A model generated the notes under the pieces. The model had not been told where the DNA came from. It saw nothing but the letters and a program-made list of their open reading frames with translations, and made no database searches. A DNA stretch of 64,000 nucleotides, from assembly GCA_903865745.1 (NCBI GenBank), contig CAIPKV010000025.1, forward strand, positions 1,907-65,906. The letters run 5' to 3'. Positions within the stretch are counted from its first letter, which is position 1. Every line of letters begins with the position of its first letter. Positions 9,171 to 64,000 of the stretch are shown here, one piece after another. Made by a program: the position numbers and the translations under genes. The stretch comes from an uncultured Verrucomicrobia subdivision 3 bacterium (GTDB lineage Bacteria; Verrucomicrobiota; Verrucomicrobiia; Limisphaerales; UBA11358).

Positions 9171-9217
9171 AACTATTGCGGCTTTACTCACCGGCGAACG
9201 CAGTTCATTTTTTCGGT

Positions 9218-22478: not shown

Positions 22479-22484
22479 AAATTT

Positions 22485-23258
22485 ATGAAAACACCAGCAG
22501 AACTGTTCTCCCTCAAAGGCAAAGTGGCGGTCGTCATCGGCGGCACGGGCGTGCTGTGCGGCGAGATGGCCGAAGGTTTGGCCATCGCCGGCGCGACCGT
22601 CGCGCTCGTCGGTCGCGATGCGACCAAGGCGCAGGTGCGGCTGTATGCCATTGCCAAAGGCGGCGGCAAAGCGGAATTCTTTTCGTGCGATGCGACTTCC
22701 AAAACGGCCTTGCAGCAACTGCTGGCCGATGTGCTGAAGCAGCTTGGCCGGGTGGACATTTTGGTAAACGGCGCCGGTATCAATTCGCCAACGCCATTCC
22801 TTGATATTCCCGAAGACGAGTTCGATAAAATCATTACGGTGAATTTGAAGGGCGTCGTGCTGGCGTGCCAGGTGTTCGGCAAACATCTGGTGGAACAGAA
22901 ATCCGGCAGCATCATCAACCTCGGCTCCGCCTCCGGGCTGGCGCCGATTTCGCGCGTGTTCACTTATTCAGCCTCCAAAGCGGCGGTGCATAACCTCTCT
23001 AAAAATCTCGCGCGCGAGTGGGCGACGAGCGGCGTGCGCGTGAACATTCTGGTGCCCGGATTTTTCCCGGCGGAACAAAACCGCAAAATCCTCAATCCCG
23101 AACGCGTGGCCAGTATCATGGCCAAGACGCCGATGAAGCGCTTTGGCGAGGCGCACGAGCTGGTGGGCGCGACTTTGTTGCTGGCGTCGGATGCGGGTAG
23201 CTTTATCACCGGCGCGGAAATCGTGGTGGACGGCGGGTTCGATGCGATGAGCATCTGA
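22485..23258 (+). CDS. SDR-family oxidoreductase (KduD/gluconate-5-dehydrogenase-like)
   Basis: TGxxxGxG-type motif ([11 protein letters not shown]), NGAG, and a YxxxK catalytic motif (YSASKAAV). Length is 257 aa. Confidence 0.9.
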
Positions 23259-35359: not shown

Positions 35360-36598
35360 ATGCAGGCTGAAAACTTATCTACGGCTAGCGGGGAGCCGCC
35401 TTCGGGCAACTCATTACCGAACTTAAAAACCTTCCGTTCCGCCGGGCGCGGCTATTGGCACGATGTTGCGGACGCCGACTGGAACGACTGGCGCTGGCAG
35501 CTTAAACACCGCATCACGACGGTGGAGCAATTGCAGAAATTTCTCCCCACGCTGACGCCCGAAGAATATGCCGGTGCCAAGCTCGCGAACACCAAGCTCG
35601 CACTCGCCATCACGCCCTATTTCTTTAATCTCATCAATCCGGCAGATGAAAACTGCCCCATCCGCTTGCAAGTCATTCCCAAGCTGGCCGAGACGCACAC
35701 CGCGTCGTGGGAGATGAGCGACCCGTGCGGCGAAGATTCGCATTCGCCTGTGCCCGGACTCGTGCATCGTTATCCCGACCGCGTGTTGTTTCTGGTGACG
35801 GATCGTTGCGCGGCGTATTGCCGCTATTGCACGCGCTCGCGGCTCGTCAGCAATGCGACCGGCTACGACTTCCATCCGGAGTTTGACAAGCAAATCGCCT
35901 ACATCGCCGCGCACCCAGAAATCCGCGACGTCCTCCTGAGCGGCGGCGACCCGCTGCTGTTAAGCGACGAGAAGCTGGAAAATCTGTTGAGCCGGCTGCG
36001 CGCCATTCCGCACGTCGAGTTTCTCCGCATCGGCTCGCGCATCCCGACGTTTTTGCCGCAGCGCATCACGCCGGAATTGTGCGCGATGCTCAAACAGTTT
36101 CATCCGCTCTTCCTGAGCATCCACTCGAATCATCCGCGCGAGCTCACCACCGAAGTGCGCGCCGCCCTGGGCCGGCTCGCCGACGCCGGCATCCCGCTGG
36201 GCAACCAGACCGTGCTGCTCAAGCACGTCAACGACGACGCCGATGTGATGAAGGCGCATTTGCAAAAGCTGCTCATGTGCCGCGTCAAACCGTATTACAT
36301 CTATCAATGCGATTTGATTGCCGGCTCCGCCCACCTGCGCGCGAGCGTGCGCACGGGCCTGGCCATCATGGAGAAATTGCGCGGCCACACGACCGGTTAC
36401 GCCGTGCCGACCTATGTGATCGACGCTCCCGGCGGCGGCGGCAAGGTGCCGGTGAGTCCGGAATACGTCTTGAGCCGCAATGCCGACCGCGTCGTCATCC
36501 GCAACTTCGAGGGTAAAATCTTCGAGTATCCCGAAGCTGCCGACGGCAGTCCGCTCAGCCAGCCGCCAAATGAAATTGTAGCTCCGGAGCTGGTTTAA
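35360..36598 (+). CDS. kamA: Lysine 2,3-aminomutase (KamA-family radical SAM enzyme)
   Basis: Radical-SAM CxxxCxxC (CAAYCRYCTRS), SGGDPL, and KamA-type N- and C-terminal regions. Length is 412 aa. Confidence 0.9.
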   Translation: MQAENLSTASGEPPSGNSLPNLKTFRSAGRGYWHDVADADWNDWRWQLKHRITTVEQLQKFLPTLTPEEYAGAKLANTKLALAITPYFFNLINPADENCPIRLQVIPKLAETHTASWEMSDPCGEDSHSPVPGLVHRYPDRVLFLVTDRCAAYCRYCTRSRLVSNATGYDFHPEFDKQIAYIAAHPEIRDVLLSGGDPLLLSDEKLENLLSRLRAIPHVEFLRIGSRIPTFLPQRITPELCAMLKQFHPLFLSIHSNHPRELTTEVRAALGRLADAGIPLGNQTVLLKHVNDDADVMKAHLQKLLMCRVKPYYIYQCDLIAGSAHLRASVRTGLAIMEKLRGHTTGYAVPTYVIDAPGGGGKVPVSPEYVLSRNADRVVIRNFEGKIFEYPEAADGSPLSQPPNEIVAPELV

Positions 36599-36740
36599 GG
36601 GTCGCCCCTGACGGAGCGTGCTTCCTTGGTGTTGCCACATCTATCTCAGTGCCAGCCCAACCGGCTTCGCTCCCCCCGTTCGCACCAAGGGACAACCTAA
36701 CCATGGTTAGGCGGAAGCCACAGCCGCATCTTTGGTTGAG

Positions 36741-36971
36741 GCATCCGCGTGTTGGTTTGCCACAGCCGCGTGTTTACTTGGAGCATTCCCGTGTTTGTTT
36801 GAGGCAAGCGCGGATTCACTTGAGCCATTCCCGTGTTTACTTACCGCAAGTGAATACGCGCTCGGGGCATTCCCGTATTCACTTGCCCCATGCGCGTGTT
36901 TGGTTGGGGCATTCGCCTACGCGAATGCCCCATTTGAATACGCGCTCGGGCCAAATGAATACGCGGATGTG
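36741..36971. repeat. Tandem array B: 11 units of exactly 21 bp in two mutually complementary subtypes (GCATTCCCGTGTTTACTTG / GCAAGTGAATACGCGCTCGGG)
   Basis: The anchor C(G/C)CGTG sits at 36746, 36767, 36788, 36809, 36830, 36872, 36893 and 36914, all offsets of 21 or 42. There is a perfect 13-bp hairpin at 36846-36858/36874-36886 and a perfect 12-bp hairpin at 36905-36916/36921-36932. Confidence 0.9.
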
Positions 36972-37153
36972 GTGTCCCGAACGTGGAAAATGCTGGAAAA
37001 CCCGCCTTTTGCCCCGGTTAAGACGGAAATGGCGCGGTTCCGTGGTAAAACGGCGGGTTCAGCATCAAAATCGGCGGCCGCAAAGTTTGCTTGGTCTAGT
37101 TGCCGCTTCTTGTTTAAACTTTCACGACAGTTTTGAATCAAAAGGAACATTTT

Positions 37154-39430
37154 ATGGCTACATCACACATTTGGAAATTCTTCCGCGCCGGCGGCTTTAA
37201 TCAGGTTGTCATCGGCACGGGCGCCGACCTCGCCAACCTCGACCAGCTCGACCAGAAACTTTGGGTCGCCCTCGCCTGCCCCACCACCGGCATCGAATTT
37301 GATCCGACCACGCTCGCGCTCATCGACACCGATAAGGACGGTCGCGTGCGTGCGCCGGAACTCATCGCCGCCGCCAAGTGGGCCGCCGGCCTCATCAAGA
37401 ATCCGGATGACCTGCTCAAAGGCAGCCCCACGCTCAAACCCTCCGCCATCAATGACGCCACGCCGGAAGGTAAATTGATCGCCAACTTTGCGCGCCAGGT
37501 TTTGGGCAAGGCCGATGACGGCGAAGTGACTTTTGACGAAGCCGCCGCCGCCGCCGCGACCTTCGCCGCCAAGCCCTTCAACGGCGACGGCATCATCCCC
37601 GCCGAGTCCGCCAGCGACGACGCGACGAAAGCCGTCATTGCCGACATCATCAACTGCCTCGGCGCGGATGCCGATGTGAGCGGCAAGCCCGGCGTGAGCC
37701 AGGCCAAGGTGGACCAGTTTTTTGCCGAAGCCGCCGCGTATTCCGATTGGTGGAAGAAGGCCGAAGCCGACGCCACCGTACTGCCGCTCGGCGTGAATAC
37801 CGAGGCCGCCGCCGCCGCCGTCAAGGCAGTCAAGGTGAAGGTGGAAGATTACTTTGCGCGCGGCCGGCTCGCCGCCTTTGACCCGCGCTCCGTCAACGCG
37901 CTCAACCGCGATGAAAAAGATTACGTGGCGCTCGGCACAAAAGATTTGACCAATAATCACGCCGATATCGCCGGCCTGCCGCTCGCGCAAGTCGGCGCAA
38001 CCACGCCGTTGCCGCTCACGCAAGGCATTAATCCCGCGTGGGCCGGCGCGATTGCGGCACTGCAAACGAACGCCATCGTGCCACTGCTCGGCGCGCGGAC
38101 GGTGTTGACGGAGGCGGATTGGAACGCGCTCACCGGCAAGCTCGCCGCGTTCGACGCGTGGAACGCCAGCAAGACCGGCGGCGCCATCGAGAAAATCGGT
38201 CTGGCCCGCGCGCGGGAAATTCTCGCCAGCAAGGCGAAGGAAACGTTGACCGCGCTCATCGCGAAGGACGCCGCGGAAGCGGGCAATTCCACCGCCGTCA
38301 TCGGCCTGCACCGGCTGATTCATTATCATCGCGACCTCGCGAAGCTCTGCCGCAACTTCGTCAACTTCGCGGATTTCTACGGCCGCAAGGACAAGGCCAT
38401 TTTCCAAGCGGGCACGCTGTATCTCGACCAGCGCAGTTGCGACCTGTGCCTCACGGTGGACGACGCCGGCCGACACGCGACGATGGCGGGCATGGCGGGC
38501 ACTTACCTGGCCTACTGCGATTGCGTCCGTAAGGGCACCGGTGAGAAGTTGTCCATCGTCGCCGCGTTCACCGGCGGCGATTCTGATAACTTAATTGTCG
38601 GTCGCAACGGCATTTTCTACGACCGCGCGGGTCGCGACTGGGATGCCACCATCAGCAAGATTGTGGAAAATCCCATCAGCGTCCGGCAGGCCTTCTGGTC
38701 GCCGTACAAAAAACTGGTGCGCATGATCGAAGAACGCGCCGCCAAAGCCGCCGCCGATGCCGATGCCCAATCCAATGCAAACCTGACAGCCGTGGCGAAT
38801 ACGCCCGTCTCCCCGACGGCGGCTCCAGCTGCGCCGGCAAAATCCGCCTTCGATCCGAGTGTCATCGCCTTGCTCAGCTTGGCCTTCGGTGCCTTGGCCA
38901 CGGCATTCGCAGGCTTCTTGACCTTCCTTGGTAGATTTAACGAAGATCAATGGAAGCTGCCGCTGGTTATTCTTGGCATCATGCTATTGATTTCCTCGCC
39001 GTCCATGGCCATTGCGTGGCTGAAACTGCGCAAGCGCAACCTTGGTCCGATTCTCGACGCCAACGGCTGGGCAGTGAACGCCAAGGCGAAGATGAACGTG
39101 CCATTCGGTGGTGCGCTTACCGGGGTGGCGGCGCTGCCGCCGGGCGCGACGTTCGGGGCGCCGGACAAATATGCGGAGAAGCCGTCCGCCTGGCCGAAAG
39201 TTCTGGCGGTCGCGTTCGCACTGTGGTTCGTCTGGGCATTCCTCAACGACAGTCAAGGGCGGCTCTACAATTGGACGGATGGTCAATACGGCACGCCGCC
39301 GCTATCGGTCCGCGAACAGATTGCCAAAGACAAACAAGACAAACTCAACAAAGCCAAGGCTTCTGTTTCGGGCACCAACGCCGTGCCAGCCACGGTTTCG
39401 GCGGTAACCAACGCGGTTCCAACGAAATAA
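37154..39430 (+). CDS. Large membrane protein with an N-terminal canonical EF-hand loop, function unknown
   Basis: The start at ATG 37154 is preceded by AAAGGA. DTDKDGRVRAPE matches the 12-residue EF-hand loop pattern D-x-D-x-D-G-x-(hydrophobic)-x-x-x-E. The C-terminal region has 3 or more TM helices. Confidence 0.7.
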   Translation: MATSHIWKFFRAGGFNQVVIGTGADLANLDQLDQKLWVALACPTTGIEFDPTTLALIDTDKDGRVRAPELIAAAKWAAGLIKNPDDLLKGSPTLKPSAINDATPEGKLIANFARQVLGKADDGEVTFDEAAAAAATFAAKPFNGDGIIPAESASDDATKAVIADIINCLGADADVSGKPGVSQAKVDQFFAEAAAYSDWWKKAEADATVLPLGVNTEAAAAAVKAVKVKVEDYFARGRLAAFDPRSVNALNRDEKDYVALGTKDLTNNHADIAGLPLAQVGATTPLPLTQGINPAWAGAIAALQTNAIVPLLGARTVLTEADWNALTGKLAAFDAWNASKTGGAIEKIGLARAREILASKAKETLTALIAKDAAEAGNSTAVIGLHRLIHYHRDLAKLCRNFVNFADFYGRKDKAIFQAGTLYLDQRSCDLCLTVDDAGRHATMAGMAGTYLAYCDCVRKGTGEKLSIVAAFTGGDSDNLIVGRNGIFYDRAGRDWDATISKIVENPISVRQAFWSPYKKLVRMIEERAAKAAADADAQSNANLTAVANTPVSPTAAPAAPAKSAFDPSVIALLSLAFGALATAFAGFLTFLGRFNEDQWKLPLVILGIMLLISSPSMAIAWLKLRKRNLGPILDANGWAVNAKAKMNVPFGGALTGVAALPPGATFGAPDKYAEKPSAWPKVLAVAFALWFVWAFLNDSQGRLYNWTDGQYGTPPLSVREQIAKDKQDKLNKAKASVSGTNAVPATVSAVTNAVPTK

Positions 39431-51597: not shown

Positions 51598-54500
51598 TTA
51601 CGGATAAACCAACCGGTAGTACTCGTTCGTCATGCCGACCTTGATGATTGTGAGGTTAGTCGACGTGATATTCGTGGAGCCCAAAACCGTACCCCAGTCG
51701 GTCTTGTTGCTGCTCACACCCTTGTTCAAGTTGTTCGTCTGCACCAGCAACCGGTAGCCCAAATAACCCTGCGGCCAGCTCAACACCAAGCTGGTTCCCC
51801 CGCTTACGCTGTTCGTCAAATGCGGCGGGCTGTTGGTGATTGGCTGCAACAATGCGTTCACGGTATAAACATTCGTCTGCAACCCATCCTGCGATACCAC
51901 CTGCACCGCCAGCACGTTTGCCGGCTGGCTTAGGCTCAGGGCGTTGTTCGCGCTCGCCACCCCATTCGTTAACGGGATGTTGTAGTTGCTACCGTTGTTG
52001 AAGCTCAACGCCACCGCCGCGTTCCCATCCGCACTCGTGGCCGTCACCGCCACATTGGTATTCGGATACGTGTTCGTCGCCGTGTAGTTCGTCAGGCCGC
52101 TGCTAAACGACTGGCTCAAAGCCCACGGTGAGATGAGCAGGCTGGTTAGTAGCGCATTCGTGCCCTGCAAGGTCACGTTCACCGTGTAGCTGTTCATCAC
52201 CGACCCGTCTTGCGATACTGTCTGCACCGTCACGTTGTTCGACCCCTCGACCAGACCCGTCGCCGTCGTCAGCGGACTGCTGGTCAGACCGTTGGTTAAG
52301 TAACCTACATTCGAACTGTTCACATACAGCGTATTCGTCGCATTCGAATCAATATTTGTTATCGTCACCGTTAGCGGTAAGCTCGCCAAGCTGTTGGTTG
52401 CTGTGTAGGGTCCGCTCGGCAAGTTTGTGCTGAATGATGTCGGAGAAAAGGGCAACTGCACATTCGCCGCATTGCTCAGGACCAGCGAGGTCAGGTAGGT
52501 GGTCGAGCTTGACGCAGAGCCCAACTGCGTTAGGGACACCACATAGGTGCTTGTCTGCGACCCGTCCTGCGAAACCACCTGGACCGACACGTTGGTCGTG
52601 CCGACATTCAAGGTCAGCCCGCTGCTGGCAATTTCGTTGGTCAGCACTTGTTTTGTGGTAGTGCCCAATAGGAGCGTGTTCATCGCCGTGGCATCCACGT
52701 TCGTCACCGTCACCGTCACCGTCACCGGGCCGGCGCCAGCGGCATTCGTCGCATAGTAGATGCCGGTGTTGGTCGTCGCGAAGGGGGACGGATAGAAGGT
52801 CAGTGCTCCGGTGCCGTTGCTGATTACCAAGTTCGCCAACTGGGCGTTCGTGCTCAGCCGCGTCACCGTCACGAAGTAGTTGCTTACCGTCAAGCCGTCC
52901 TGGGCCGTTACCTGTACCCGGATGACGTTTGTCGAGCCTACACCTACCGCCAGCGGCAGGCTCGTCACCTCATTGGTCAGCAGGCCCTGTGACACGTTGT
53001 TCAAGAACAACTGATTCGTCGCAAAAGCCGAGTTGTTCGTTACCAGCACCGTCACGGACGAATTTGCGTTGTAGTTCGTCGCGAAATAGTTCGTCGTGCC
53101 GGGGTGGAAGGTCGGTGAAACCGAGGCGTTCACCACCAAGTTAAACAGACTCGCATCCTTGCTGGCTGTGCTAACCACGAGGTTGACATGCCCAGCACCA
53201 TCATTGGTGATGGTTCCGAAGGTGCCACTTTGCGGAGTGTCAAACACCACCGCAGTGGCAAACTGTGTTCCATTGGTCGTCCCGTAGGTGAACAGATTGT
53301 TGTAAGTACCCGCCGCCAACTGCCCGCCGCCGGTGTTGATTTCAACCACGCTGCCATTCGGCGATAACAGGCCGGCGACCGCCACGGTGTTGCTGACCCC
53401 GCCAGCGGTGGTCACCACAAACAGGTTGGTGGAGGTGGCATTCAAGGTCAGGTTGCTGTTGAGGGTCAACTGGCCTATGCCGTTGACACCGGGATATAGC
53501 ATCGCGCCGGCATTATTCGTCACCACATTGCCCAAGGTGCCGGTGCCGCTCAAGATGCCGCCGCTGTTAACCGTCACCGGGCTGGCCGTGATCTGGCCGT
53601 TGACCTGCAGCGTGCCGGCATTGACGGTGGTCTTGCCGGTGTAAGTGTTGCCGTTGTTATTAAGAATCAACTTGCCCGTGCCGACCTTGGTGATCGCACT
53701 TGGGCCACCACCAGAAACGCCGCTGCCATTGGTGATAACTCCGTCAATCACGCTCGTCGTGTTCAACGCGCCAATCTGATAGGTTTGAGTGGCGACGTAA
53801 TCCGCGCCGCCCAGTGCTGACGACGCATCCACGTTGAGCGCACCAAACTGCGCGGTGTTGCCGCCGGAATTGTTCATTCCAACCAAACTGACCCCGCCGA
53901 CGCCCGTGATAAGATTGACGGTCGCGCCGCTCAAGTTGCCGTCAAAAGAGCCGCCATTGACGTTGTTGAAGTTCAAAACCAGGTAGGCGTTGGCCTCCGC
54001 GCCAGTAATATTAAGCGTGCCTCCAAAATTGGCGCAGGTGGATAGACAGTCGCCAATGACTGAACTGCTGTTTTGCGGCTGCTGGTTGTTAACCTGAAGA
54101 TTCAAGGTTCCCGAACCGTAAAGAGCTGGCAGCTTCATGGCATTCGTCATGATAATCAGGCCATTGGTTCCGCTGGGCACCGTCAGGCTAATCCCATTCA
54201 GATAGATTCCGTTCGCCGTCACACCCAGCGTGCCGCCTTCCAAGGTGGTCATGCCCGTGCCAAGATTGGTTGCCGCACCGATAAGCAGTTTGGCCGGATA
54301 ATTTACCGTTGTGCCGCCACTGTAATTATTGTTGCCGCTAAGGGTCTGGGTGCCGGCACCCGCGATGACCAATGCAATCTTACCGTTGCTGCCATTGACA
54401 TTGGTATCCAGAATCAAGCCGGCGTAAGTCGGGGCGCTCCAATTGCTGATGGTGAGCGTATTGACGCCGGTGCCGCCGTTATTGACAATCCGGCCCAGTG

Positions 54501-57500
54501 TGGTGCCGGTAATGCCCGAAAGGCCATTCAGCGTCTGGTTGTTGCCATTCAAGTCCAGGGTGCCAGCCGTGCTGCCGCCATCCAGAACCGTCCAACCCGT
54601 TACGCCGACGGGGAGCACCGCCGGGCCGGCCAGCTTGACCGTGCCACCATTGATAGCGGTGTTGTTGGCATAAGTATTGACCCCGCCAAAGATGTTGGTG
54701 CCCGGACCGTTAAAGCTTACCCAGCCATTGCCGCTGATGCCATTGGTCACGGCATAGGTGCCGGCCAGATCAAAGGCGACGGTGCCGCTATTGGTCAGGC
54801 TGATGGCATTGGTCGGAAACGCTGTCGTGCCGCCGTTACCAAATTGAAGGGTACCCGTGTTGATCACGGTTGCGCCAGCGTAGGTGGTATTGCCTGCCAG
54901 GGTCACCGTATTCGAGCCCTCTTGAACGAGGCTGCCAGTGCCGGTTAAGTTGCCCACCACCGTATAGTTGTTGTTCGTCTGATCAAAAATCAGGAGCGCG
55001 TTGTTGGTGATGACACCGGCACTAAGGCCCGTGTTCGGGGTGTTGCCATCGCCGACCTGCAACACGCCGCCATTGATGGTCGTCGGGCCGGTGAAGTCAT
55101 TGGTGATGAGTAGCGTCAGCGTGCCGGAGCCGGTCTTGGTCAGACCGTTGGTCATGATGCCGGTAATCTTGCCTAAGCCGCTAGTGCTATTAAACGTGTA
55201 ATTGGACGAACCGCTCACCATGACGCCGCTGGGCGACACTGGCAGCTGCAAATTCACCGGGGAATTTGCCGCGCCCGCATTATTAAAGGTGACGCTGTCG
55301 CCGTTTAAAAAGGCTTCGTCATCCACACCAACCAAGTTCGTCCAGTTGATGCTGCTCGTGTCCCAGTAGTTGGCCGAACCGTCACCAATCCAGGTCAGAC
55401 TATTCGTACCAAGCGTCAGCACAATGAGTTGAATATGACCGGCGTTATCATCATGCAGCGTGAAAAACTGGTTGCCCACTTGGGCGGGAGTCACATTCAA
55501 GTTGGCGGTCACGGAGCCGCTGATGGAGTCATAGGTAATGAGCGTATTAGTGCCATCGGGCAGCGTGCCGGAAATGTTCAACTTGACCGTGCCAGCGCCG
55601 GCCAGGGTCAATCCGCCTGTCACCGCGACCAAATCGTTGGTGCTGCTGCTGATGTCAAACAAATTGGTGTTCCCATTCAATATCAGTCCACCCGTAAAAG
55701 TGAGCGTGCCATAATTACCCAGACCGGTGACACCCGGGGCAAGCGTGCTGCCAGGGGCCATGCCCACCGGTGCCTGGTTATTGAAGCTACCGGTGCCAGC
55801 CAGCGTTGTTCCGGCATAGTTGGTCGTAGCGGTATAGCCGCCCAGCAGGCTGTCCACCTCCAGCGTACCGCCACTGACTATCGTCGGGGCGGAATAATTA
55901 TTCGCACCGCCGCTCAGGACCAGCAGACCGGTACCAACCTTGGTCAGACCGGTGTATTGAGAGCCATCGGTGATGTTACCAGCAAAGGTGCTGGTCGTGT
56001 TCAGGTTGCCGACCACGAAGATGCTGGGAAGCGTGGTGTTACCACCGGGATTGGACGTGTTGCCGGCGGTGAGCCCAGATCCGGCACTACCGTTTAACGC
56101 ACCGAGATAAACCGTCTGGTTGCCATATTTGCTGTTAATATTTCCGGTCGCGCCCAGATTCCAGGTCGCATTTGCACTGCCATAAGTGGTAGCCGTAGTA
56201 ACGATGCTGGCCCGGATGCCGCCGTTGAGGTTGATGATGCCGCTAAAACCGCTCACGCTGCCGCTCGGGCTAAAGGTGCCACCAACAATATCCAGGTTCA
56301 CCGTCCCGCCGCCGACGAGATTGAGCGCTGGATAATAGCCACCGGTGCCATTGAATTCGAGCGTACTGATCGCGCTGGGCGCATTGCTGATGGTGTTGGC
56401 AATGTAGGCGCCGTTTTCATATAGAGTGCTGCTGTTATTGAGCGTGACCAGGCCGCTACCGAGGCTGCCGACGCCGGTGAGCGTCACCTGGCCGCTGTTG
56501 ATCACCGTGCCGCCGGTGTAGGTGTTGGCCGCCGTCAACGTCAGGATTCCGGAAGAATTCACATTCAAAGCCACCGTCTTGGTGCCGCTGCCCAGTACAT
56601 CTTCAATCACGCCACCAAACGTCGAGCTGCCGCCATTGTAATTGAGGGTTGAAGCCGCCACGGTACCGCCGTTGCCGATGTAGCAGGTGGTGGCACCGGT
56701 AGCAATGGCCAGACTGCCCACCGTCAAACCGCTGTTGTTCAAATCCAGAATGCCGTTCGTGACGCTGCTGCCCAGTGTCAGGGTGTTGATGGCGCTGTTG
56801 CCGCCAATGGCCAGTGTGCCGCCCGCCTCGACGGTTACATTGCCGGAGCCGTTAATGGGGCCGGTGGCCACCCGGCTGGGCGAATCCATCACCAAGGCCG
56901 CGTTGTTGGTGACGCTGCCCGTTCCGATCGCTCCGGAGATGGTGCCGTTACCGAGCTGCACCGTGCCGCTATTGATAATTGTGCCGCCGGTGTAAGTGTT
57001 GGCGGTCAGAATGGTCAAGGTTCCGGTACTGTTATTGGTCAGGGCGGTCGCACCGCCGATTACCCCGGTGTTGGTGAAAGTATAGCTCTGGGTGCCATTG
57101 ACGGTCACGCTGCCCGGGGTGAGCGCCCCCACCAGATTGACCGTTGTATTGGCGGAAGTGTTATCAAAGATTGTATTATCACTGTCATTATACACCCACG
57201 GATTAACCGAAGTAGTGGTGTCGTCCCAGTTCGACGTGGTATTCACATCCCACTGGCCGCCCGAAACGTTACCAACCCAGGTCAGGTTCTGGGCGACATA
57301 GGTGCCAACCACCAGATTCAATCCGCCCGAAACCGCCGACAACGAAACCGACTGGCCGCTCTGCGTAAAGCCAGATATGGCTATGGCAGACAACGATCCA
57401 CCCGGCGTGCCACTGCAATTGATCAACCGGTAAGTGCCATTGGCCAGCGTGCCATTCGCGATGCTCAATTGGATGTTGCCGGAAGTGAGAGTCAGTCCAC

Positions 57501-59943
57501 CGGTGAGGGTGATGATGCCGTTGGTGTGGAAACCGGCATCAAATCTTATCAGGATGTTGCCGCCATTCAGCACTAGGCTACCGAGGGTCAGGATACTGTT
57601 CGTTCCAATCGAGCTTACCGTGCCGCCGGTCGAATTTGTCACCGCTCCGCTGATGCTGCCAGTGCCGGTCAGGATGCCTGACCCATTGATTGTCACACCG
57701 CCCGTGCCAGTGGCCGAACCGGTTGAATTGTTGGCATTCAAGGTGCCGCCACTGACCGTGGTGCCGCCGGTGTAAGTGCTCGGGGCGAGCAACGTCAAAG
57801 ACCCGTTCGGGAGCGAGCTGGCCAAGGTCAGCGCGCCGCTGCCGCCGTTGCCGACGGTATTGGTGAAGACCACCGCGTTGCCATTCACATCAATCGTACC
57901 ATTGCCCGTCAAGGTCACGGGCTTGGCTACTCCGCCATTCGTGCCGCCGGTGCCATATGAGGTGTCTTCCGTAATGTCCAGTGCCACGTTAAGCGGCGTC
58001 GCCGCATATTGAAGGGTACCATTATTAAAGGTCAGACCGCCGTAGGCCCCGCCGCCCAGCGCCCAAACACTATTGATGATGGCCGTGGCGCCGCCCGTGA
58101 TGATGGTTCCACTGGAATAGCCATTGCCAGCTCCGTTCAAATTCACCGTGCCGCTACCGACGATGGCGGTCGTGTTCGCCGTACCGGCACCGGTGCCGGG
58201 CAGCGTGCCGCAGCCAATAATGAGCGGACCAGAACCACTGGCACTGTTTATGTAACCATCCACCGACATGGTCTTGCCGGCCGCAGCAGCTAGCGTCCCA
58301 CCCGCACCGCTCAGATATATCGGGCGGGGGTTCGCGCCAGCATTATCCAAGGTGAAAGTGCCATTGCCAAACAGCGTGCCACCATTGATGTTCAAGGTTG
58401 CTCCCGTGGCAATCGCGCCTAGGCCGGAATTGGCACTGATGACCGTATAACCACCATCCAAGAAATTCTGTCCGGTATAGGTGTTGACACCGTTGAGAAA
58501 TACCGACCCAGGTCCGCCTTGGATGTAAGTAGACGTAGCCGCGCTGCTAGATCCGTTAGCGATTGGTGGGCTTATAATGAATTCACCCAAGATATTGTTT
58601 TGCCATACCGTCAAACCCGTAGCCGCACCGGTTGAGCGGCTGGCCTGTAAGGCAATCGCCCCACTGGCCGCTATCGTAGTATTGTTAGCACCCACATTAG
58701 GTGTAACAAGGAAGGCGCCACAGACGGAATTGCCAGTCACGTGCCCCTCAGTCAACGTGATCGCACCAGCGGTATTAAAACGGACTTCCCCATAAGCTCC
58801 TGAAACACTGCCGCTACCATTAAACATGGTGGCATTGGCTGTCAAATCAATGTTAAGCCCATAGCTGCTAGTTGCAGGGAGTGAATTCACTGTCGAATAA
58901 AATCCAGAAATCTGACTACCACCCACGATGGTGCCAGTTTGGGCTGTCCCAACCGTACCACCGGACACCGCCGCCCAGTCATACAGGCCAACGGTGGCAT
59001 AGGCTCCCGCCGCACCCCCTGTAGAGGTAGATATGAGTCCCAGATCGCTGGTATTCGCGGTCACATTGTAAACCCCGGTCGCTGCCACGGTGGTACCACC
59101 GAGCGTCGTCCCGCTGCTCGCGCCGCTGTTATACGCGGCACCATCAAAACGTACCAACGCACCGGCCGTGCCGGTTAGCGTGCCCAAATTATTGGTGGGA
59201 ATCGTGCCGGAGATCGCCGAGTTGGTGATGATACTCTGACCAGAGGTGGTCGAATAAAACGCCGTGCTGGCAAAAGTCTGTGAACTGCCGCCGCTAGCCC
59301 CCAAGGTCTGCACCGTGCCGCCATTCAACTTCAACGCGCTGGCAGAATTAATGATGTTGGCCGAAGGCGCGCCGCCGGCGGTGAAATCCAGCTTGAGCGT
59401 CCCGGCATTGTTTGTCACGTTGCCCGTAAAGGTGTTGGCCGCTGATAGGACGAGCGTGCCCGGACCCGTCTTGGTGATGCCAAAGGTTGAACCGGAAATG
59501 ACGCCACCCACGGTCAGAGTCAGGCCGCTATTCACCGACCACGTCTGGGAGGCACTCAAAGCGACCGCGCAATTGAGGGTCGCATTGTTGTTGGCCGAAG
59601 CCATGTTGATGCCGGAAGCCGCCAGCGTCAAAGTACTGCCGGCACCGACCGTCAGCGGGCCGGCGGTGTTGTTGTCAAATTGGAGTCCCAGCAGGGAAGT
59701 ATTCCCCCCCAGCGCCATGCCGGACAAGTTGGCGGAACTGGGCGTGCTGCCAAACTCGCCAATCACGCTGGCGGTTGGCGCAACTGCGGTGACGCCGCCC
59801 GGAGTCGTCGCCCAATCAGACGAGGCGCTCATCGTCGCGGTAGCCGCCTTGTAAATATTCGCTTGGATCTTCACCGCGCCGGCCAGTAACAGCAGGCCGG
59901 TGCCGAGGATGATTTGTTTGGTGATTAATTGATTGGTTTTCAT
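51598..59943 (-). CDS. Giant (2781 aa) PATR protein with 4 cadherin-like beta-sandwich domains and a C-terminal beta-sandwich tail
   Basis: Signal peptide, then about 2100 aa of PATR-type repeats (GxGTLxLxGxNTYxGxTxxxxGTL). Four units of the L..L..S.G.L.P.F......Y type follow (cadherin-like beta sandwich). No autotransporter barrel is present. Confidence 0.85.
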   Translation of the reverse strand: MKTNQLITKQIILGTGLLLLAGAVKIQANIYKAATATMSASSDWATTPGGVTAVAPTASVIGEFGSTPSSANLSGMALGGNTSLLGLQFDNNTAGPLTVGAGSTLTLAASGINMASANNNATLNCAVALSASQTWSVNSGLTLTVGGVISGSTFGITKTGPGTLVLSAANTFTGNVTNNAGTLKLDFTAGGAPSANIINSASALKLNGGTVQTLGASGGSSQTFASTAFYSTTSGQSIITNSAISGTIPTNNLGTLTGTAGALVRFDGAAYNSGASSGTTLGGTTVAATGVYNVTANTSDLGLISTSTGGAAGAYATVGLYDWAAVSGGTVGTAQTGTIVGGSQISGFYSTVNSLPATSSYGLNIDLTANATMFNGSGSVSGAYGEVRFNTAGAITLTEGHVTGNSVCGAFLVTPNVGANNTTIAASGAIALQASRSTGAATGLTVWQNNILGEFIISPPIANGSSSAATSTYIQGGPGSVFLNGVNTYTGQNFLDGGYTVISANSGLGAIATGATLNINGGTLFGNGTFTLDNAGANPRPIYLSGAGGTLAAAAGKTMSVDGYINSASGSGPLIIGCGTLPGTGAGTANTTAIVGSGTVNLNGAGNGYSSGTIITGGATAIINSVWALGGGAYGGLTFNNGTLQYAATPLNVALDITEDTSYGTGGTNGGVAKPVTLTGNGTIDVNGNAVVFTNTVGNGGSGALTLASSLPNGSLTLLAPSTYTGGTTVSGGTLNANNSTGSATGTGGVTINGSGILTGTGSISGAVTNSTGGTVSSIGTNSILTLGSLVLNGGNILIRFDAGFHTNGIITLTGGLTLTSGNIQLSIANGTLANGTYRLINCSGTPGGSLSAIAISGFTQSGQSVSLSAVSGGLNLVVGTYVAQNLTWVGNVSGGQWDVNTTSNWDDTTTSVNPWVYNDSDNTIFDNTSANTTVNLVGALTPGSVTVNGTQSYTFTNTGVIGGATALTNNSTGTLTILTANTYTGGTIINSGTVQLGNGTISGAIGTGSVTNNAALVMDSPSRVATGPINGSGNVTVEAGGTLAIGGNSAINTLTLGSSVTNGILDLNNSGLTVGSLAIATGATTCYIGNGGTVAASTLNYNGGSSTFGGVIEDVLGSGTKTVALNVNSSGILTLTAANTYTGGTVINSGQVTLTGVGSLGSGLVTLNNSSTLYENGAYIANTISNAPSAISTLEFNGTGGYYPALNLVGGGTVNLDIVGGTFSPSGSVSGFSGIINLNGGIRASIVTTATTYGSANATWNLGATGNINSKYGNQTVYLGALNGSAGSGLTAGNTSNPGGNTTLPSIFVVGNLNTTSTFAGNITDGSQYTGLTKVGTGLLVLSGGANNYSAPTIVSGGTLEVDSLLGGYTATTNYAGTTLAGTGSFNNQAPVGMAPGSTLAPGVTGLGNYGTLTFTGGLILNGNTNLFDISSSTNDLVAVTGGLTLAGAGTVKLNISGTLPDGTNTLITYDSISGSVTANLNVTPAQVGNQFFTLHDDNAGHIQLIVLTLGTNSLTWIGDGSANYWDTSSINWTNLVGVDDEAFLNGDSVTFNNAGAANSPVNLQLPVSPSGVMVSGSSNYTFNSTSGLGKITGIMTNGLTKTGSGTLTLLITNDFTGPTTINGGVLQVGDGNTPNTGLSAGVITNNALLIFDQTNNNYTVVGNLTGTGSLVQEGSNTVTLAGNTTYAGATVINTGTLQFGNGGTTAFPTNAISLTNSGTVAFDLAGTYAVTNGISGNGWVSFNGPGTNIFGGVNTYANNTAINGGTVKLAGPAVLPVGVTGWTVLDGGSTAGTLDLNGNNQTLNGLSGITGTTLGRIVNNGGTGVNTLTISNWSAPTYAGLILDTNVNGSNGKIALVIAGAGTQTLSGNNNYSGGTTVNYPAKLLIGAATNLGTGMTTLEGGTLGVTANGIYLNGISLTVPSGTNGLIIMTNAMKLPALYGSGTLNLQVNNQQPQNSSSVIGDCLSTCANFGGTLNITGAEANAYLVLNFNNVNGGSFDGNLSGATVNLITGVGGVSLVGMNNSGGNTAQFGALNVDASSALGGADYVATQTYQIGALNTTSVIDGVITNGSGVSGGGPSAITKVGTGKLILNNNGNTYTGKTTVNAGTLQVNGQITASPVTVNSGGILSGTGTLGNVVTNNAGAMLYPGVNGIGQLTLNSNLTLNATSTNLFVVTTAGGVSNTVAVAGLLSPNGSVVEINTGGGQLAAGTYNNLFTYGTTNGTQFATAVVFDTPQSGTFGTITNDGAGHVNLVVSTASKDASLFNLVVNASVSPTFHPGTTNYFATNYNANSSVTVLVTNNSAFATNQLFLNNVSQGLLTNEVTSLPLAVGVGSTNVIRVQVTAQDGLTVSNYFVTVTRLSTNAQLANLVISNGTGALTFYPSPFATTNTGIYYATNAAGAGPVTVTVTVTNVDATAMNTLLLGTTTKQVLTNEIASSGLTLNVGTTNVSVQVVSQDGSQTSTYVVSLTQLGSASSSTTYLTSLVLSNAANVQLPFSPTSFSTNLPSGPYTATNSLASLPLTVTITNIDSNATNTLYVNSSNVGYLTNGLTSSPLTTATGLVEGSNNVTVQTVSQDGSVMNSYTVNVTLQGTNALLTSLLISPWALSQSFSSGLTNYTATNTYPNTNVAVTATSADGNAAVALSFNNGSNYNIPLTNGVASANNALSLSQPANVLAVQVVSQDGLQTNVYTVNALLQPITNSPPHLTNSVSGGTSLVLSWPQGYLGYRLLVQTNNLNKGVSSNKTDWGTVLGSTNITSTNLTIIKVGMTNEYYRLVYP

Positions 59944-60084
59944 AACGGGGAACGTTCGGATGGTCTTAGGATTATTCGGATTGAACGGATTGATTTAGTT
60001 TTAACTCTGAACACTTAAGTCTTCGGCCATAAACGCAACGGCGCGTGACGACAGACGACTCTGCTGGGTGATGGGCATGATGCA

Positions 60085-60142
60085 AATATACGCCGTGTTC
60101 AAAAATGCGCCATCACCAGAACTGTTGATGCCGCATCACCAG
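60085..60142 (-). promoter_or_regulatory. Candidate regulated promoter/operator of the giant operon
   Basis: On the minus strand, a TATATT -10-like hexamer (60090-60085) has no good -35. Upstream of it are two direct CTGGTGATG repeats (plus-strand CATCACCAG at 60111-60119 and 60134-60142, 23 bp apart) embedded in the inverted CAGAACTG/CAGTTCTG. Confidence 0.3.
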
Positions 60143-60224
60143 TTCTGGGGACATGGCGAATCGGTGGCTGGCTCGTAAATGGTAGTTGGGCGACCCGTTT
60201 TTAACCGGAGCAATTGCCGGTTAA

Positions 60225-60602
60225 ACCTATCTTCTCGGTCTTGCATCCTCCCGTCTCGCTGATGATTCCTCCCCGCTCCGTCACTGATCCTCCCGCCTGT
60301 GTCGCAATTCCTCCCCACTCGCTGACCAACCCTCCCGTCTCGGTCACTGATCCTACCCGCTCGCTAATGATTCCTACCCGGTCGGTCGCCAATCCTACCT
60401 TCTCCGTGACTAATCCTACCCTCTCGATGACGTATCCTCCCGTCGCAATGACGGATCCTCCCATCTCAGCCACGCATCCTCCCGTCTCGATGATAATTCC
60501 TCCCCTGTCAGTCACCGTTCCTCCCGTCTCAATGACACTTCCTCCCGTCTCCGTCGCACTTCCTCCCGTCTCCATGACGGATCCTCCCGTCTCCGTCGTC
60601 AC
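60225..60602. repeat. Tandem array C: 18 units of exactly 21 bp, 12-nt conserved core TCCTCCCGTCTC + 9-nt variable tail
   Basis: TCCT anchors sit at 60246, 60267, 60288, 60309, (60330), 60351, 60372, 60393, 60414, 60435, 60456, 60477, 60498, 60519, 60540, 60561 and 60582. A degenerate unit lies at 60225. Confidence 0.92.
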
Positions 60603-60748
60603 CCGGTTTCCAGAAATGGGACAGGGCAGTCAAGAAATGTGGACACTTATCGAGTGCGGAATGCCGGGTACAAACTGCGGAATGGGGAATTTAACCACCG
60701 AGACGCAAAGGAGTTAGGACGCAAACAGAAGTGCTGAAAGCCGCGTGT

Positions 60749-60792
60749 AGAAAAGGAAACCCACCGGTTCATTAGTTGGAAACACCAGTGGG
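60749..60792 (-). terminator. Probable terminator of the HK-RR operon
   Basis: On the minus strand, stem cccactggt / accggtggg (one mismatch) is followed by TTTCCTTTT, about 40 nt after the response regulator stop. Confidence 0.45.
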
Positions 60793-60833
60793 ACACCGGA
60801 TGAGAACGTAATATCCAGATTATTTAAACCGGG

Positions 60834-61487
60834 TCATCGCTGGGAAGAACCGCCGCGGTTCTGGCCGAGATGCTTGGCCACGGCTTCAGTGCGGGAGCGC
60901 ACATGCAGCTTCTCATAGACGTGCCGGATGTGCGTATGCACCGTAGCGTAGCTGACCTTCATCTGGTCGGCGATTTCTTTGTAGAGAAAACCTTTGGCCA
61001 GCAAATCCAAAACTTCGGCTTCCCGCGGCGACAGGCTCTGCGCTTCGGCGGATACCGCCACGGGCTGCTGGAAGGATTGCACAATCTTCCGCGCAATGTG
61101 ACTGCTCATTGGCGAGCCGCCGGACTGAACTTCTTTGATGGCGGTGAGCAACTCGGCGGGCGGCGTTTGCTTGAGCATGTAGCCGGTGGCACCCGCCGCG
61201 AGCGCATTGAAGATATGTTCCGTATTCTGATACACGGTGAGCATGATGAGTTGCGTACCGGGCAGCAGCGGTTTGAGCCGCCGCACACATTCCACGCCGT
61301 TCATGCCCGGCAGGTTGATGTCCATCAGGATGACGTTGGGCTGGATTTTGGGCAGCTCTTTTAGCGCGTCCTCCGCATTTTCGTGCCGGCTCAAGCATTG
61401 AAAGCCTGGTGCACCGTCAATCAGCTTGGCCAGACTGCCCCGAACCTGCGCGTTGTCCTCGACGATGGAAACGGAAATTTTATTCAT
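60834..61487 (-). CDS. LuxR/NarL-family response regulator
   Basis: REC domain (VILMDINLPGMNG) plus a C-terminal GerE/LuxR HTH (LSPREAEVLDLLAKGFLYKEIADQMKVSYATVHTHIRHVYEKL). Confidence 0.92.
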   Translation of the reverse strand: MNKISVSIVEDNAQVRGSLAKLIDGAPGFQCLSRHENAEDALKELPKIQPNVILMDINLPGMNGVECVRRLKPLLPGTQLIMLTVYQNTEHIFNALAAGATGYMLKQTPPAELLTAIKEVQSGGSPMSSHIARKIVQSFQQPVAVSAEAQSLSPREAEVLDLLAKGFLYKEIADQMKVSYATVHTHIRHVYEKLHVRSRTEAVAKHLGQNRGGSSQR

Positions 61488-61577
61488 GTGCTGCGCAGCT
61501 TTCTCGAAAGGGAATTAGCGAGTGCGCCTGAGCGAAATCAGCCGGCCATTCAAATGGTTTCATGTTGTGATCAAAAT

Positions 61578-64000
61578 TTAGCCGCGGTCAGCATCCTGGC
61601 CAACCGGCCCGTTTGACGAGGGGCGGTGGGTGAGGGCGACGGTGAGTTCCACCCGGGTCCCCTGCCCGGCCGCGCTGTGAATGTCGCATCGGCCACCGAC
61701 GGTGGCCAGCCGTTTTTCCAGATTGCCCAACCCGGAACCGGAGGCGAGCCGGTCTGCACCAACGGTGGTGTCGCCGCTGCTGGCAGCCAGGCCGCGGCCA
61801 TTGTCCTCGATGATCAGCGTGAACTCCTGGGGCCCGACTCGCAACCGCAGCCAGACTTCCGTGGCCTTGGCATGCTTGACAATGTTGTTCAAAACTTCTT
61901 TGAATGCGAGAAACAAGTTGTAGCGCCGCTCGGCGTCCACCCGCGCCACCGGCAATGTGACCGGCAGGTCGGTGCGAAACCGGACATTCGCCACGCGCAG
62001 AAAATCTTCGGCATAAGCCGAGGCGTAATCCAGCAGACCATCCAGCGTGTCGTGCTGCGGGTCCACGGCCCAGACGATCTCGTCCATGGACTTGGTGATT
62101 TTACGCGCGGAATCGGATATGCGCTGGAGGTTTGCCGGCATCTGCTCGGGTTCACGCCGCGCCAACTCGGTCAGCAAAGTGATTTGGGTTAAGCCCGCGC
62201 CGACATCGTCGTGGATATCGCGCGCGATGCGGGCGCGATCACGTTCAATGGCATTCTGCTGTTCGAGCCGCGCCACCCGGCGACGATATTTCCGCGTGGC
62301 CGCGCGCCGCACGCCGAACGCCACACCGGCGATGACGAGCGCGCCGATAAAAGCCATGAAGGAATTGGACTGATAAAAGTAAGGGGCCACGGTGAAGTGG
62401 ATTACCGCCCCGGTGTAGTTCCAGACGCCTTGATTGTTACAGGCAATCACGTGAAAACGGTAATTGCCCGGCGGCAAATGTCCGTAGTGGGCGGTGCGCA
62501 GCGTCTCGGCATCCACCCAGCGGGAGTCAAACCCCTCCAGCCGGTAACGGAACCGCGCGCGTTCGCCGGCGTCAAAATTCAGCGCCGTGAACCGGAAATT
62601 AAATTGTGAGTGACCCGGCGGTACGTTGATATCGCCATCCGTAAGCGACACCGGCTCACCGTCCACGTTGAACTCCTCAACCAGCACCGGCGGCGGCGCG
62701 GACTCCGCCGTCAGCGCATTCGGGTCCACCCACACCACCCCACGCACCGTCGTGAACCACAATCGCCCGTCCGTCCCGCGCCAGCACGCGGGCTGGTAGC
62801 CATCCGAACATTCCAACGCAGGGAGGCCATCGTGCCGGCCATAGGCAATGTAATCCAACGACGACGACCGGCCATCGGCGCAGGCATTCAACGACAGTTT
62901 GTCCACGCAGAAAATACCTTGGTGCGTGCCCAACCAGAGCCGGCCGTGGCTGTCCTCTAAAATCTGGCTGATGACATCCGCCGGCAAACCCTGCTTCGTG
63001 GTGATGCGGGAAAACTTCCCGTTCTGGAAGCGGACGAGTCCACCGTGGAAAGTTCCGGCCCAGAGCGTGCCGGAAGCGTCGGCGTGCAAGGCATAGACTG
63101 CCTGATCAGCCAGCGCATCCACCGCCCGGAACGGCTGCATTTTTCCCGGCGAGCATAGGTAAATCGTGCCGTCATCCGCGCCCGCCCAAAGATTTCCGTC
63201 GGACGTTTCCGCCAGCGCCCGGATGGCTGGCAGCAGCGAACCATCGGCGTTGGTATTCAAGATCTGCCGGTCGTCACCCGCCGCCCAGGCAAAGCCCGCC
63301 TTGATGCCGAGCCACAGCCGCCCTTGATGGTCGGTCAGAATCGACTTGATGCCCCGCACGTCCCAGGTTGAACGCCGCACTTGTCCGTCCTTGAATTCAT
63401 AGAGCGACTCGGCTTCGGCCGCGCTCAGCCACGCGCCGCCGCCTGGCTCCGGAAAAATCGAGAATACAAAGTTTGGCGCCGCACTGGGGCCGATGGCGTA
63501 ACGGGTGATTTTCCCATCACGCCATCGACAAAGACCGCCACCGCCCGTACCAATCCAGACTCCACCGTTCGTATCCTGACAAACCGACAGCGCCGCCCGG
63601 ACCGGCAAACCTTCGGCGGGACCAATCACATGAAATTGCCGGTCGCGCAGCCGCACCAAACCACCGCGGTCCACCCCCGCCCAGATGCCGCCGTCGCGGC
63701 CTTGAAACCACGCGCCCACCCGGTCGCCCGGCAGACCGTTGAGCGTCGTGATCCGCTGGAACTGGCCTTCCGGCGTAATGTGAAACAGTCCGTTGCCATA
63801 ATGGTTGAACCATACGCCACCGTCGCGATCCTCATGCATACCCATCGCGCGGCCGGAGGCCCAACCGAGCAGACCATCCCATTCCGGAGCCTCGGCCACC
63901 CACGCGCGGCCGACCATTTTGCGGAGGTGACCGCCATCCAGCACCCACACCGCACCCGATTTGGTTGGGAACAGTAGCCACGGCGTCAGGTTCGCCGTGG
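61578..64000 (-). CDS. Sensor histidine kinase with periplasmic two-component-regulator propeller repeats + Y_Y_Y domain, HisKA_3/HATPase; N-terminus beyond window
   Basis: Repeated G.LW.GT..GL propeller blades, a Y_Y_Y-like segment (RFRYRLEGFDSRWV ... NYRFHVIACNNQGVW), a TM helix, H-box ARDIHDDVGAGL and an HATPase region. The frame stays open to base 64000. Confidence 0.88.
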   Translation of the reverse strand, partial: TANLTPWLLFPTKSGAVWVLDGGHLRKMVGRAWVAEAPEWDGLLGWASGRAMGMHEDRDGGVWFNHYGNGLFHITPEGQFQRITTLNGLPGDRVGAWFQGRDGGIWAGVDRGGLVRLRDRQFHVIGPAEGLPVRAALSVCQDTNGGVWIGTGGGGLCRWRDGKITRYAIGPSAAPNFVFSIFPEPGGGAWLSAAEAESLYEFKDGQVRRSTWDVRGIKSILTDHQGRLWLGIKAGFAWAAGDDRQILNTNADGSLLPAIRALAETSDGNLWAGADDGTIYLCSPGKMQPFRAVDALADQAVYALHADASGTLWAGTFHGGLVRFQNGKFSRITTKQGLPADVISQILEDSHGRLWLGTHQGIFCVDKLSLNACADGRSSSLDYIAYGRHDGLPALECSDGYQPACWRGTDGRLWFTTVRGVVWVDPNALTAESAPPPVLVEEFNVDGEPVSLTDGDINVPPGHSQFNFRFTALNFDAGERARFRYRLEGFDSRWVDAETLRTAHYGHLPPGNYRFHVIACNNQGVWNYTGAVIHFTVAPYFYQSNSFMAFIGALVIAGVAFGVRRAATRKYRRRVARLEQQNAIERDRARIARDIHDDVGAGLTQITLLTELARREPEQMPANLQRISDSARKITKSMDEIVWAVDPQHDTLDGLLDYASAYAEDFLRVANVRFRTDLPVTLPVARVDAERRYNLFLAFKEVLNNIVKHAKATEVWLRLRVGPQEFTLIIEDNGRGLAASSGDTTVGADRLASGSGLGNLEKRLATVGGRCDIHSAAGQGTRVELTVALTHRPSSNGPVGQDADRG

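Follow-up and report, generated by a model that had tools for sequence, protein, structure and literature searches.

A phased 21-bp tandem array within a discrete non-coding cassette upstream of a giant-protein operon in an uncultured Verrucomicrobia bacterium

The window analysed here is the whole stretch of 64,000 nucleotides (64 kb) taken from contig CAIPKV010000025.1 of an uncultured Verrucomicrobia subdivision 3 bacterium. The element in question, array C, is a row of 21-bp tandem repeats that lies between a response-regulator gene and a gene for a giant PATR/cadherin-like protein, where an earlier note on this DNA had placed it. The repeats of array C form the core of a discrete non-coding cassette of ~500 bp, which is made up of a leader, the array, and a tail and runs from 60663 to 60164 on the minus strand, the coding strand of all genes neighbouring the array. 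Read along that strand, the locus holds the following features.

60834-61487, minus strand: NarL/GerE-type response-regulator gene, upstream of the array.
60749-60792, minus strand: terminator-like hairpin and U-run, CCCACUGGU...ACCGGUGGG UUUCCUUUUC, which ends the histidine kinase-response regulator (HK-RR) operon and is kept in orthologues without the array.
60664-60757, minus strand: extra ~95 nt on the leader side, absent in array-less orthologues and not shared with the cassettes of other lineages.
60603-60663, minus strand: leader, the 5' cassette flank of ~60 nt, in which TGTCC..ATTTC occurs twice at a distance of 21 nt (60634-60646 and 60613-60624) and is followed by TGGAAACCGGGTGACGACG.
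60246-60602, minus strand: the array itself, whose 17 units of 21 bp keep an exact register and have the consensus GAGACGGGAGGATTCGTCACC, delimited by a print in rows of 21, Tandem Repeats Finder (TRF), and column statistics.
60225-60245, minus strand: degenerate 18th unit, GAGAAGATAGGTTTAACCGGC, which merges into the tail hairpin; related arrays have a counterpart, GAGACGGTAGGTTCAGACCGG.
60164-60224, minus strand: tail, the 3' cassette flank of ~60 nt, with the hairpin TTTAACCGG/CCGGTTAAA (60200-60225), ACGGGTCGCCCAAC (60185-60198), and CCATTTACGAGCCAGCCAC.
59944-60163, minus strand: proximal control region of the giant gene, ~220 nt from the tail to the ATG at 59943, conserved in array-less orthologues.
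51598-59943, minus strand: giant gene for a 2781-aa PATR/cadherin-like protein, the first gene downstream of the array.

The response-regulator gene is accompanied, upstream on the minus strand, by a Reg_prop/Y_Y_Y/HisKA_3 histidine kinase gene, and the terminator that had been proposed for this operon was found as a hairpin with a U-run after the regulator gene. The giant gene is followed, in order, by genes for an N-methyl-motif protein, a GH28 enzyme, and a 1999-aa protein with PL4 rhamnogalacturonan-lyase domains, and together these downstream genes constitute a pectin/rhamnogalacturonan locus. Its gene content, along with a homologue that bears the label 'Verrucomicrobiae bacterium', points to the Verrucomicrobiota. 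Within the proximal control region, a perfect 9-bp inverted repeat is formed by CCAGAACTG (60148-60140) and CAGTTCTGG (60124-60116), with N15 between the arms. Each palindrome arm is followed by a copy of CTGGTGATG, after which come TTTTTGAA, TATATTT (60090-60084), and the 5' leader of the gene. The stretch 60084-60148 is likely to be the true response-regulator site and promoter.

When 60225-60640 is laid out in rows of 21, no indel is needed by any of the 17 units, and TRF reports a period of 21 with 16.6 copies as well as higher-order periods of 42, 63, and 84. The tandem array described in the earlier note as 18 units of 21 bp is present, with 17 units in register and one degenerate. The 12-nt core TCCTCCCGTCTC, which had been assigned to every unit, is exact in only six of the 17. 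At the motif inside this core, GGGAGGA occurs 12 times, GGTAGGA four times, and GGGAGGG once; of the proposed row of 17-18 GGAGG/GGA motifs, AGGA is found in 16/17 units and GGAGG in 13/17. TCCT[AC]CC has 16 copies within the array versus two in the remaining 63.6 kb. Likewise, 12 of the 13 window copies of GGGAGGA on the minus strand fall in the array, and there are no plus-strand copies. The occurrence of array C is far beyond chance. As DNA, a single 21-bp unit reads GTGACGGAGACGGGAGGAT.

The columns of the unit are conserved to very different degrees. While the positions of GG.AGGA are invariant or nearly so, columns 13-15 are almost random, and a second, weaker conserved block, G-Y-S-A-Y, occupies columns 16-20, so that the 9-nt variable unit tail described earlier is variable only in part. 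The window array shows 84 substitutions from the consensus and no indels. These substitutions are uneven over the unit columns (chi-square 71, p=1.2e-7), with zero changes at five core columns versus 8-10 at five tail columns. Adjacent intergenic alignments show several gaps per ~240 nt, whereas array C shows none.

Homologous arrays were gathered by a translated-array protein search and a metagenome pattern scan, which yielded three further lineages. The first (L002, L129, L130, L131, L135, and L151) appears, from the sample series, to come from peat-bog metagenomes. The second is represented by L161 and the third, more distant, by L152, with 11 units. In a local alignment of the window with L135, homology is confined to 60663-60164. 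The leader and tail are shared with L135, L129, and L161, the last ~30 nt of the leader are kept in four lineages, and the leader and tail motifs are found solely beside such arrays, with a single occurrence in the 64 kb. The tail hairpin at 60200-60225 is not kept in the relatives. The stretch at 60664-60757 is lineage-specific sequence, as neither the orthologues without the array nor the other cassettes share it.

The 21-bp period is kept in all related arrays, and five peat-lineage alleles step by whole units (312, 333, 333', and 354 bp, corresponding to 15, 16, or 17 units). The order of units is partly collinear, with window units 10-13 matching L131 units 11-14 at 14-20 of 21 positions. 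Between the window and the peat lineage, aligned units are 86% identical in the core and 60% in the unit tail, and unit tails compared all-versus-all are 51% identical. The motif appears in relatives as GGTAGGA, GATAGGA, GGGTGGA, and GATTGGA; three lineages keep AGGA without change, and L152 keeps only GGA. Because conservation is uneven over the columns, the core exceeds the unit tail in identity (86% vs 60%), and collinearity is partly retained, these comparisons point to a nucleotide motif, and not a peptide or an RNA fold, as the target of purifying selection. Within the population of the window itself the array is fixed: its exact 124-aa translation is found on 15 contigs, and L001 is the same as the window across the array. 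The suggestion that unit number varies thus holds for the related lineage and not for the window population.

Two arrangements at the flanks of related arrays were also observed. In part of the peat lineage, as at L135 (2334-2375), a 14-nt tandem duplication in the leader places GGGAGGCCGAGTGA twice before the first unit and yields GGAGG-N7-ATG, an arrangement absent from the window and L129. In L152 (465-505), the array is followed by CTGTCC-GTTTCA-GGACAG, with a second CTGTCC 21 nt past the first and a local fold z-score of -2.1; these TGTCC motifs resemble those of the window leader but lie on the opposite side of the array.

The closest regulator orthologues, 92-93% identical, lie in L138, L139, and L153-L159, which share the synteny GH115-GH2-HK-RR-giant PATR gene. 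At these loci the spacer between the regulator gene and the giant gene is ~255-266 bp and contains no tandem repeat and zero GGKAGGA. Compared with them, the window has extra DNA of ~590 bp from 60757 to ~60165, the right end of which is the end of the tail (boundaries placed to about +/-10 nt). This difference may be a gain in the window lineage or a loss in the orthologues. Since the ~220-nt control region is kept in the array-less orthologues, a promoter leading from HK-RR to the giant operon exists without the array, and because array C belongs to a cassette that these orthologues lack, it is not intrinsic to the HK-RR/giant-operon circuit.

In the peat lineage (L135, L130, L129, and L151), the cassette is flanked by a divergent gene of the lacI family and by a GH88/GH105-type gene; its neighbours include an ECF sigma/Ser-Thr kinase pair, and no two-component system is nearby. 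In these two independent settings the cassette lies upstream of the next gene and is co-oriented with it, 303 nt from the PATR/GH28/PL4 operon in the window and 286 nt from the GH88/GH105-type gene. The products of PL4 lyases are substrates of GH105 enzymes, and both next genes for that reason belong to the rhamnogalacturonan pathway.

We tentatively favour a model in which array C is a selectively maintained, phased row of protein-binding sites on DNA, placed upstream of a promoter that works without it; we put its chance of being right just short of even. The selected motif, the strict 21-bp recurrence, the change by whole units, the lack of RNA structure, and the position upstream of promoters all argue for this model, and the phased DNA-binding array or repeat-number-variable upstream element raised in the earlier note is the option that fared best. 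Each unit carries a selectively maintained core, GAGAC-GG(G/T)AGGA, and the cores recur every 21 bp, or every two turns of B-DNA, which would place all sites on one face of the helix. The ~17 sites may bind one sequence-specific DNA-binding protein encoded elsewhere, and the bound protein could form a co-operative filament or a titration platform upstream of the promoter. Through it, the neighbouring carbohydrate-degradation genes would receive a further input, which could activate, silence, or insulate. The array evolves as whole units are gained and lost, and the helical phase is thereby preserved. If the array does recruit a protein, it would represent a naturally occurring bacterial enhancer, silencer, or titration platform that is built of many sites and can be transplanted. 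The setting is the Verrucomicrobiota, in which gene regulation is almost unexplored, and the neighbouring polysaccharide-degradation loci are of a kind relevant to carbon turnover in soil and peat.

Several observations weigh against a row of binding sites. No regulator gene is common to the contexts, which have HK/RR in the window and LacI, a Ser/Thr kinase, and an extracytoplasmic function (ECF) sigma factor in L135. The core lacks the dyad or internal direct-repeat symmetry typical for dimeric regulators, and exact phase would likewise be kept by a reading frame. The array-less orthologues keep the proximal promoter, implying that the array is dispensable for the basic circuit. The L152 array borders on the 3' end of a convergent gene for ankyrin repeats and not on the upstream region of a gene, and L002, a single Logan contig, has a 4-nt deletion that is the sole exception to whole-unit change. 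A purely structural role is not supported, and curved DNA was rejected as an explanation for this array: a wedge model gave ordinary intrinsic curvature, with 0.915 for array C against a genomic mean of 0.906, and the array is straighter than most period-preserving permutations.

Direct repeats with a similar geometry are known. The iteron and centromere-like arrays of plasmids and phages, such as the 22-bp iterons of R6K and the ParR-parC repeats, and tandem regulator sites of the Pho-box type are direct repeats of ~20-22 bp at two-turn spacing, to which one protein binds head-to-tail in many copies along a single face of the DNA. Array C resembles them as a set of direct repeats at two helical turns. 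It differs in that no rep, par, initiator, or mobile-element gene is near it, there is no A+T-rich unwinding element (G+C is ~0.57, with no dip), the setting is chromosomal and rich in carbohydrate-active enzyme (CAZyme) genes, and its 17 copies exceed the usual number. Promoter-associated variable number tandem repeats (VNTRs), or contingency loci, are intergenic repeats upstream of surface- or secreted-protein operons with copy-number alleles. Array C likewise lies upstream of a surface/secreted-protein operon, and the related lineage has alleles of 15, 16, and 17 units. However, its units are long, diverged, and slow-evolving (identical in 15 contigs), and the array is upstream of the promoter and not inside it. 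As 21-bp steps keep the helical phase, changes in copy number would not act as an on/off switch of spacing. We searched the literature on phased 21-bp bacterial arrays and on Verrucomicrobia Y_Y_Y kinases and found no description of the cassette.

The closest described element is BrickBuilt of Porphyromonas gingivalis, a minisatellite MITE (miniature inverted-repeat transposable element) with 23-nt tandem repeats as well as leader and tail (Klein et al. 2015, PMC4596501). Its terminal inverted repeats (TIRs) are IS5-like, it is present in ~19 copies per genome, its promoter activity has been shown by experiment, and its indels amount to 0-6% (PMC4596501). The two elements share ~20-23-nt tandem repeats without spacers in up to ~23 copies, conserved and variable positions within the unit, a non-repetitive conserved leader and tail, a strictly intergenic location, spurious hypothetical open reading frames (ORFs) over the repeats, and a presence or copy number that differs by locus and strain. 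For the cassette, in contrast, no TIR or target-site duplication (TSD) was found and one copy per lineage is visible; its period is exactly 21 bp without indels, it has no sequence similarity to BrickBuilt, and it belongs to another phylum.

This likeness gives some weight to a reading that we regard as possible but improbable, namely that the cassette is a functionless or selfish relic of BrickBuilt type, a MITE-like minisatellite without host benefit in a tolerant spot between terminator and promoter. Its core would have been kept for the element's own ends, such as the former binding of a transposase or recombinase or a repeat-generating mechanism. The presence or absence of the cassette at orthologous loci, its different loci in different lineages, one of them a 3'-3' intergenic region, and a proximal promoter that is intact without the array are all consistent with a relic, as are the leader/array/tail layout, which matches the published element down to its conserved and variable positions and spurious ORF calls, and three further intergenic arrays of 21 or 41 bp in the window. 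However, there is no convincing TIR, the sole candidate being a 12-nt pair that is 83% complementary and unconserved in L135, and no TSD is visible at boundaries placed to +/-10 nt. Moreover, there is apparently one copy per lineage, as each flank motif occurs once in the 64 kb and a single context came out of the metagenome scan, and the location is stable over 15 contigs and five peat-lineage alleles. An invariant core beside unit tails that are ~60% identical, together with a partly retained unit order, needs long-term purifying selection, and no phase-breaking indels have accumulated. A mere relic would still document BrickBuilt-like leader-minisatellite-tail cassettes outside the Bacteroidota.

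Scans for further family members were also made. A loose pattern, GGKAGGA-N14-GGKAGGA-N14-GGKAGGA, run over a genome collection matched at least 120 loci, with no family member among the 120 matches listed, and three matches in a scan of viral contigs were all unrelated.

An RNA element is an unlikely explanation of array C. In that case, the G-rich minus strand would be transcribed, whether into a long 5' leader of the giant operon or into its own RNA of ~450-500 nt, and the transcript would act as an AGGA sponge or platform. Its ~17 single-stranded AGGA(U/A) motifs would bind a CsrA/RsmA-like or other protein, or free anti-Shine-Dalgarno (anti-SD) tails. CsrA binds an A(N)GGA motif, which the AGGA of array C resembles, and the motif density of CsrB is similar to the ~17 in 360 nt seen here. 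The retention of AGGA in three lineages and of GGA in the fourth is compatible with such a role, and the prediction for GGA nucleotides is a mostly unpaired state (0.61 versus 0.43 overall). In addition, the next gene has the G-rich strand as its sense strand in two and possibly three contexts, and the conserved leader could hide an unrecognised promoter. CsrB, CsrC, and RsmX/Y/Z resemble the array in having many GGA/AGGA motifs, about one per 20 nt on one strand, and in being non-coding. They differ in that array C has no Rfam match, no loop display, no excess structure, no promoter or terminator of its own, and an exact period.

The comparison with a CsrB/RsmY-type sponge made in the earlier note did not survive these analyses. 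Rfam 15, scanned over 59000-62000 at E<=10, gave four weak unrelated matches, none of them to Csr/Rsm families and none above threshold. The folding of the minus-strand transcript, which had been suggested as a check, revealed no excess structure, since the 511-nt cassette had z-scores of +0.66 (minus) and +0.61 (plus) relative to shuffles. In the minimum free energy fold, three of the 16 AGGA motifs are in hairpin loops and five of the 16 are paired, and the proposed GACGG/CCGTC stem displaying GAGGAU is possible in just one or two units. The cassette is also not bracketed by transcription signals: there is no sigma-70-like promoter in the leader, where the promoter consensus of the phylum is uncertain, and no terminator in the tail, and inspection of the leader and tail by eye for sigma-54 and ECF-type promoter motifs found none with correct spacing. 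The only hairpin beyond the array is not followed by a U-run on the G-rich strand, hairpins are unconserved over the tails of the four lineages, and no U-tract was observed behind them. A good terminator just upstream makes read-through from the regulator operon unlikely. Furthermore, a sponge needs no exact 21-nt spacing, and GGAGG is unconserved in an organism that is scarce in SD sequences. A tblastn search with the E. coli and B. subtilis CsrA proteins found none in the window or the fetched loci, a result that is uninformative for the whole genome. Overall, a sponge for an AGGA-binding protein is weakened and retains some plausibility because the prediction leaves the AGGA motifs mostly single-stranded.

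The ribosome or anti-SD decoy proposed earlier found no support. SD-like sequence, counted as GGAG, GAGG, or AGGA in ~17 nt upstream (about -20 to -4) of starts that come from a mechanical ORF list and are approximate, precedes one of 34 long ORFs in the window, and the leaders are A/T-rich instead. The window organism therefore appears to be SD-scarce, as has been reported for some Verrucomicrobia (PMC10783764). With one of 34 genes SD-like, an SD decoy would be without an obvious client, and GGAGG, present in 13/17 units, is unconserved in relatives. A sub-threshold Rfam match to CcsR1, a small RNA (sRNA) with the CCUCCUCCC motif, was noted at 59743-59816 on the plus strand (17.7 bits against a gathering score of 65.3); lying antisense inside the giant gene, it is almost certainly due to chance.

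It is very improbable that array C serves as the operator or upstream activating sequence of the adjacent NarL-type regulator, with the regulator polymerising on 17 sites to drive the giant operon. Some response regulators are known to have head-to-tail arrays of sites two turns apart, for instance at Pho boxes, and the array directly follows the regulator gene and lies upstream of the presumed target of that regulator. Nevertheless, this regulator is not a likely binder, given that its orthologues do without the array: at their loci, where the regulator is 92-93% identical, neither an array nor any GGKAGGA is present, yet the palindrome and promoter are kept. Moreover, the peat-lineage cassette adjoins no two-component system. 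The extreme conservation of the family over thousands of loci argues for a shared site, which a lineage-specific array cannot be.

The regulator family itself comprises 7985 database proteins at E<=1e-40, and the best 120 of the 7985 are all 82-93% identical. Those with fetched loci (P0005-P0009 and P0083) adjoin a Reg_prop/Y_Y_Y kinase, often near CAZyme or giant PATR genes. Regulators so similar to one another raise the question of how signalling specificity persists.

Least credible of all is that array C codes for a small protein of heptad repeats, either (T-E-T-G-G-S-V)n from the minus strand (60201-60602) or (P-P-V-S-M-T-D)n from the plus strand (60214-60717). The frames are open on both strands, the period of 21 equals seven codons, a GTG or ATG start occurs just ahead of the array in three lineages, the three unit-tail codons lose conservation from first to third position, and the minus-strand ORF is annotated by a gene caller as a 124-aa protein in other assemblies. 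However, array C is non-coding, and the open frames are a by-product of composition, as the earlier note had expected when it called the ORFs on both strands repeat artefacts. A within-column shuffle predicts a mean of 0.68 stops in the minus-strand frame and a probability of 0.46 for zero stops, which accounts for that ORF by composition. The information content over 40 distinct units is 1.42, 1.09, and 1.18 bits for codon positions 1, 2, and 3, and the four-fold-degenerate third positions of the core codons ACG, GGA, and GGA show little or no change, whereas variation occurs at first and second positions. The C termini of the ORFs are unrelated and unequal in length between relatives, and the conserved tail DNA comes after the stop codon in the window but within the ORF in L135. 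Neither ORF matches Pfam, and no signal peptide or recognisable feature was seen by eye in the translations.

Searches of 5.8 billion and 1.84 billion proteins returned solely other translated arrays and unrelated low-complexity heptads. An exhaustive HMMER search with the translated array gave 129 matches, of which the seven top-ranked were inspected: P0128 is a credible array translation, and the other six are generic heptad low-complexity sequence. P0124, also among the matches, was returned by a separate protein search as well. In practical terms, the cassette yields spurious hypothetical protein calls, in the form of a 124-150-aa ORF in several assemblies.

It is conceivable, if rather doubtful, that the cassette is a portable cis-regulatory module, a phased scaffold for a DNA- or RNA-binding protein placed before rhamnogalacturonan-degradation genes in at least two lineages, where it would supply a new regulatory input, and that it forms with three other arrays of the window one undescribed class of repeat-built cassettes in SD-scarce Verrucomicrobia. 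The array types of 21 and 41 bp in the window parallel BrickBuilt (23 nt) and PgRS (41 nt) of P. gingivalis, the 41-nt repeats of MITE464/PgRS having their counterpart in a 41-bp array.

The first of the three, at 20960-21127, has eight units of exactly 21 bp with the core AATCGATSATG and a variable tail of ~10 nt. It lies between convergent genes (19521-20795 on the plus strand and 21330-22886 on the minus strand), and so outside a promoter region. Its wedge-model curvature is unusual, with an end-to-end/contour ratio of 0.76 that falls in the lowest 0.5% of window stretches of the same length. The second, at 36713-36900, is a 21/42-bp periodic array of ~9 units (…GCA..C.CGTGTTT.ACTTG…), flanked by a radical-SAM lysine-aminomutase-like gene (35360-36598) on one side and an unannotated 765-aa ORF (37133-39430) on the other, and the 183-aa ORF overlying it has no Pfam match. 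The third, at 8821-9026, consists of five 41-bp units with a higher order of 82 bp, each able to form a GGACCAA/TTGGTCC hairpin. It lies immediately upstream of a Wzy_C/TPR O-antigen-ligase-like gene (9080-11137), and its DNA is curved according to the wedge-model prediction.

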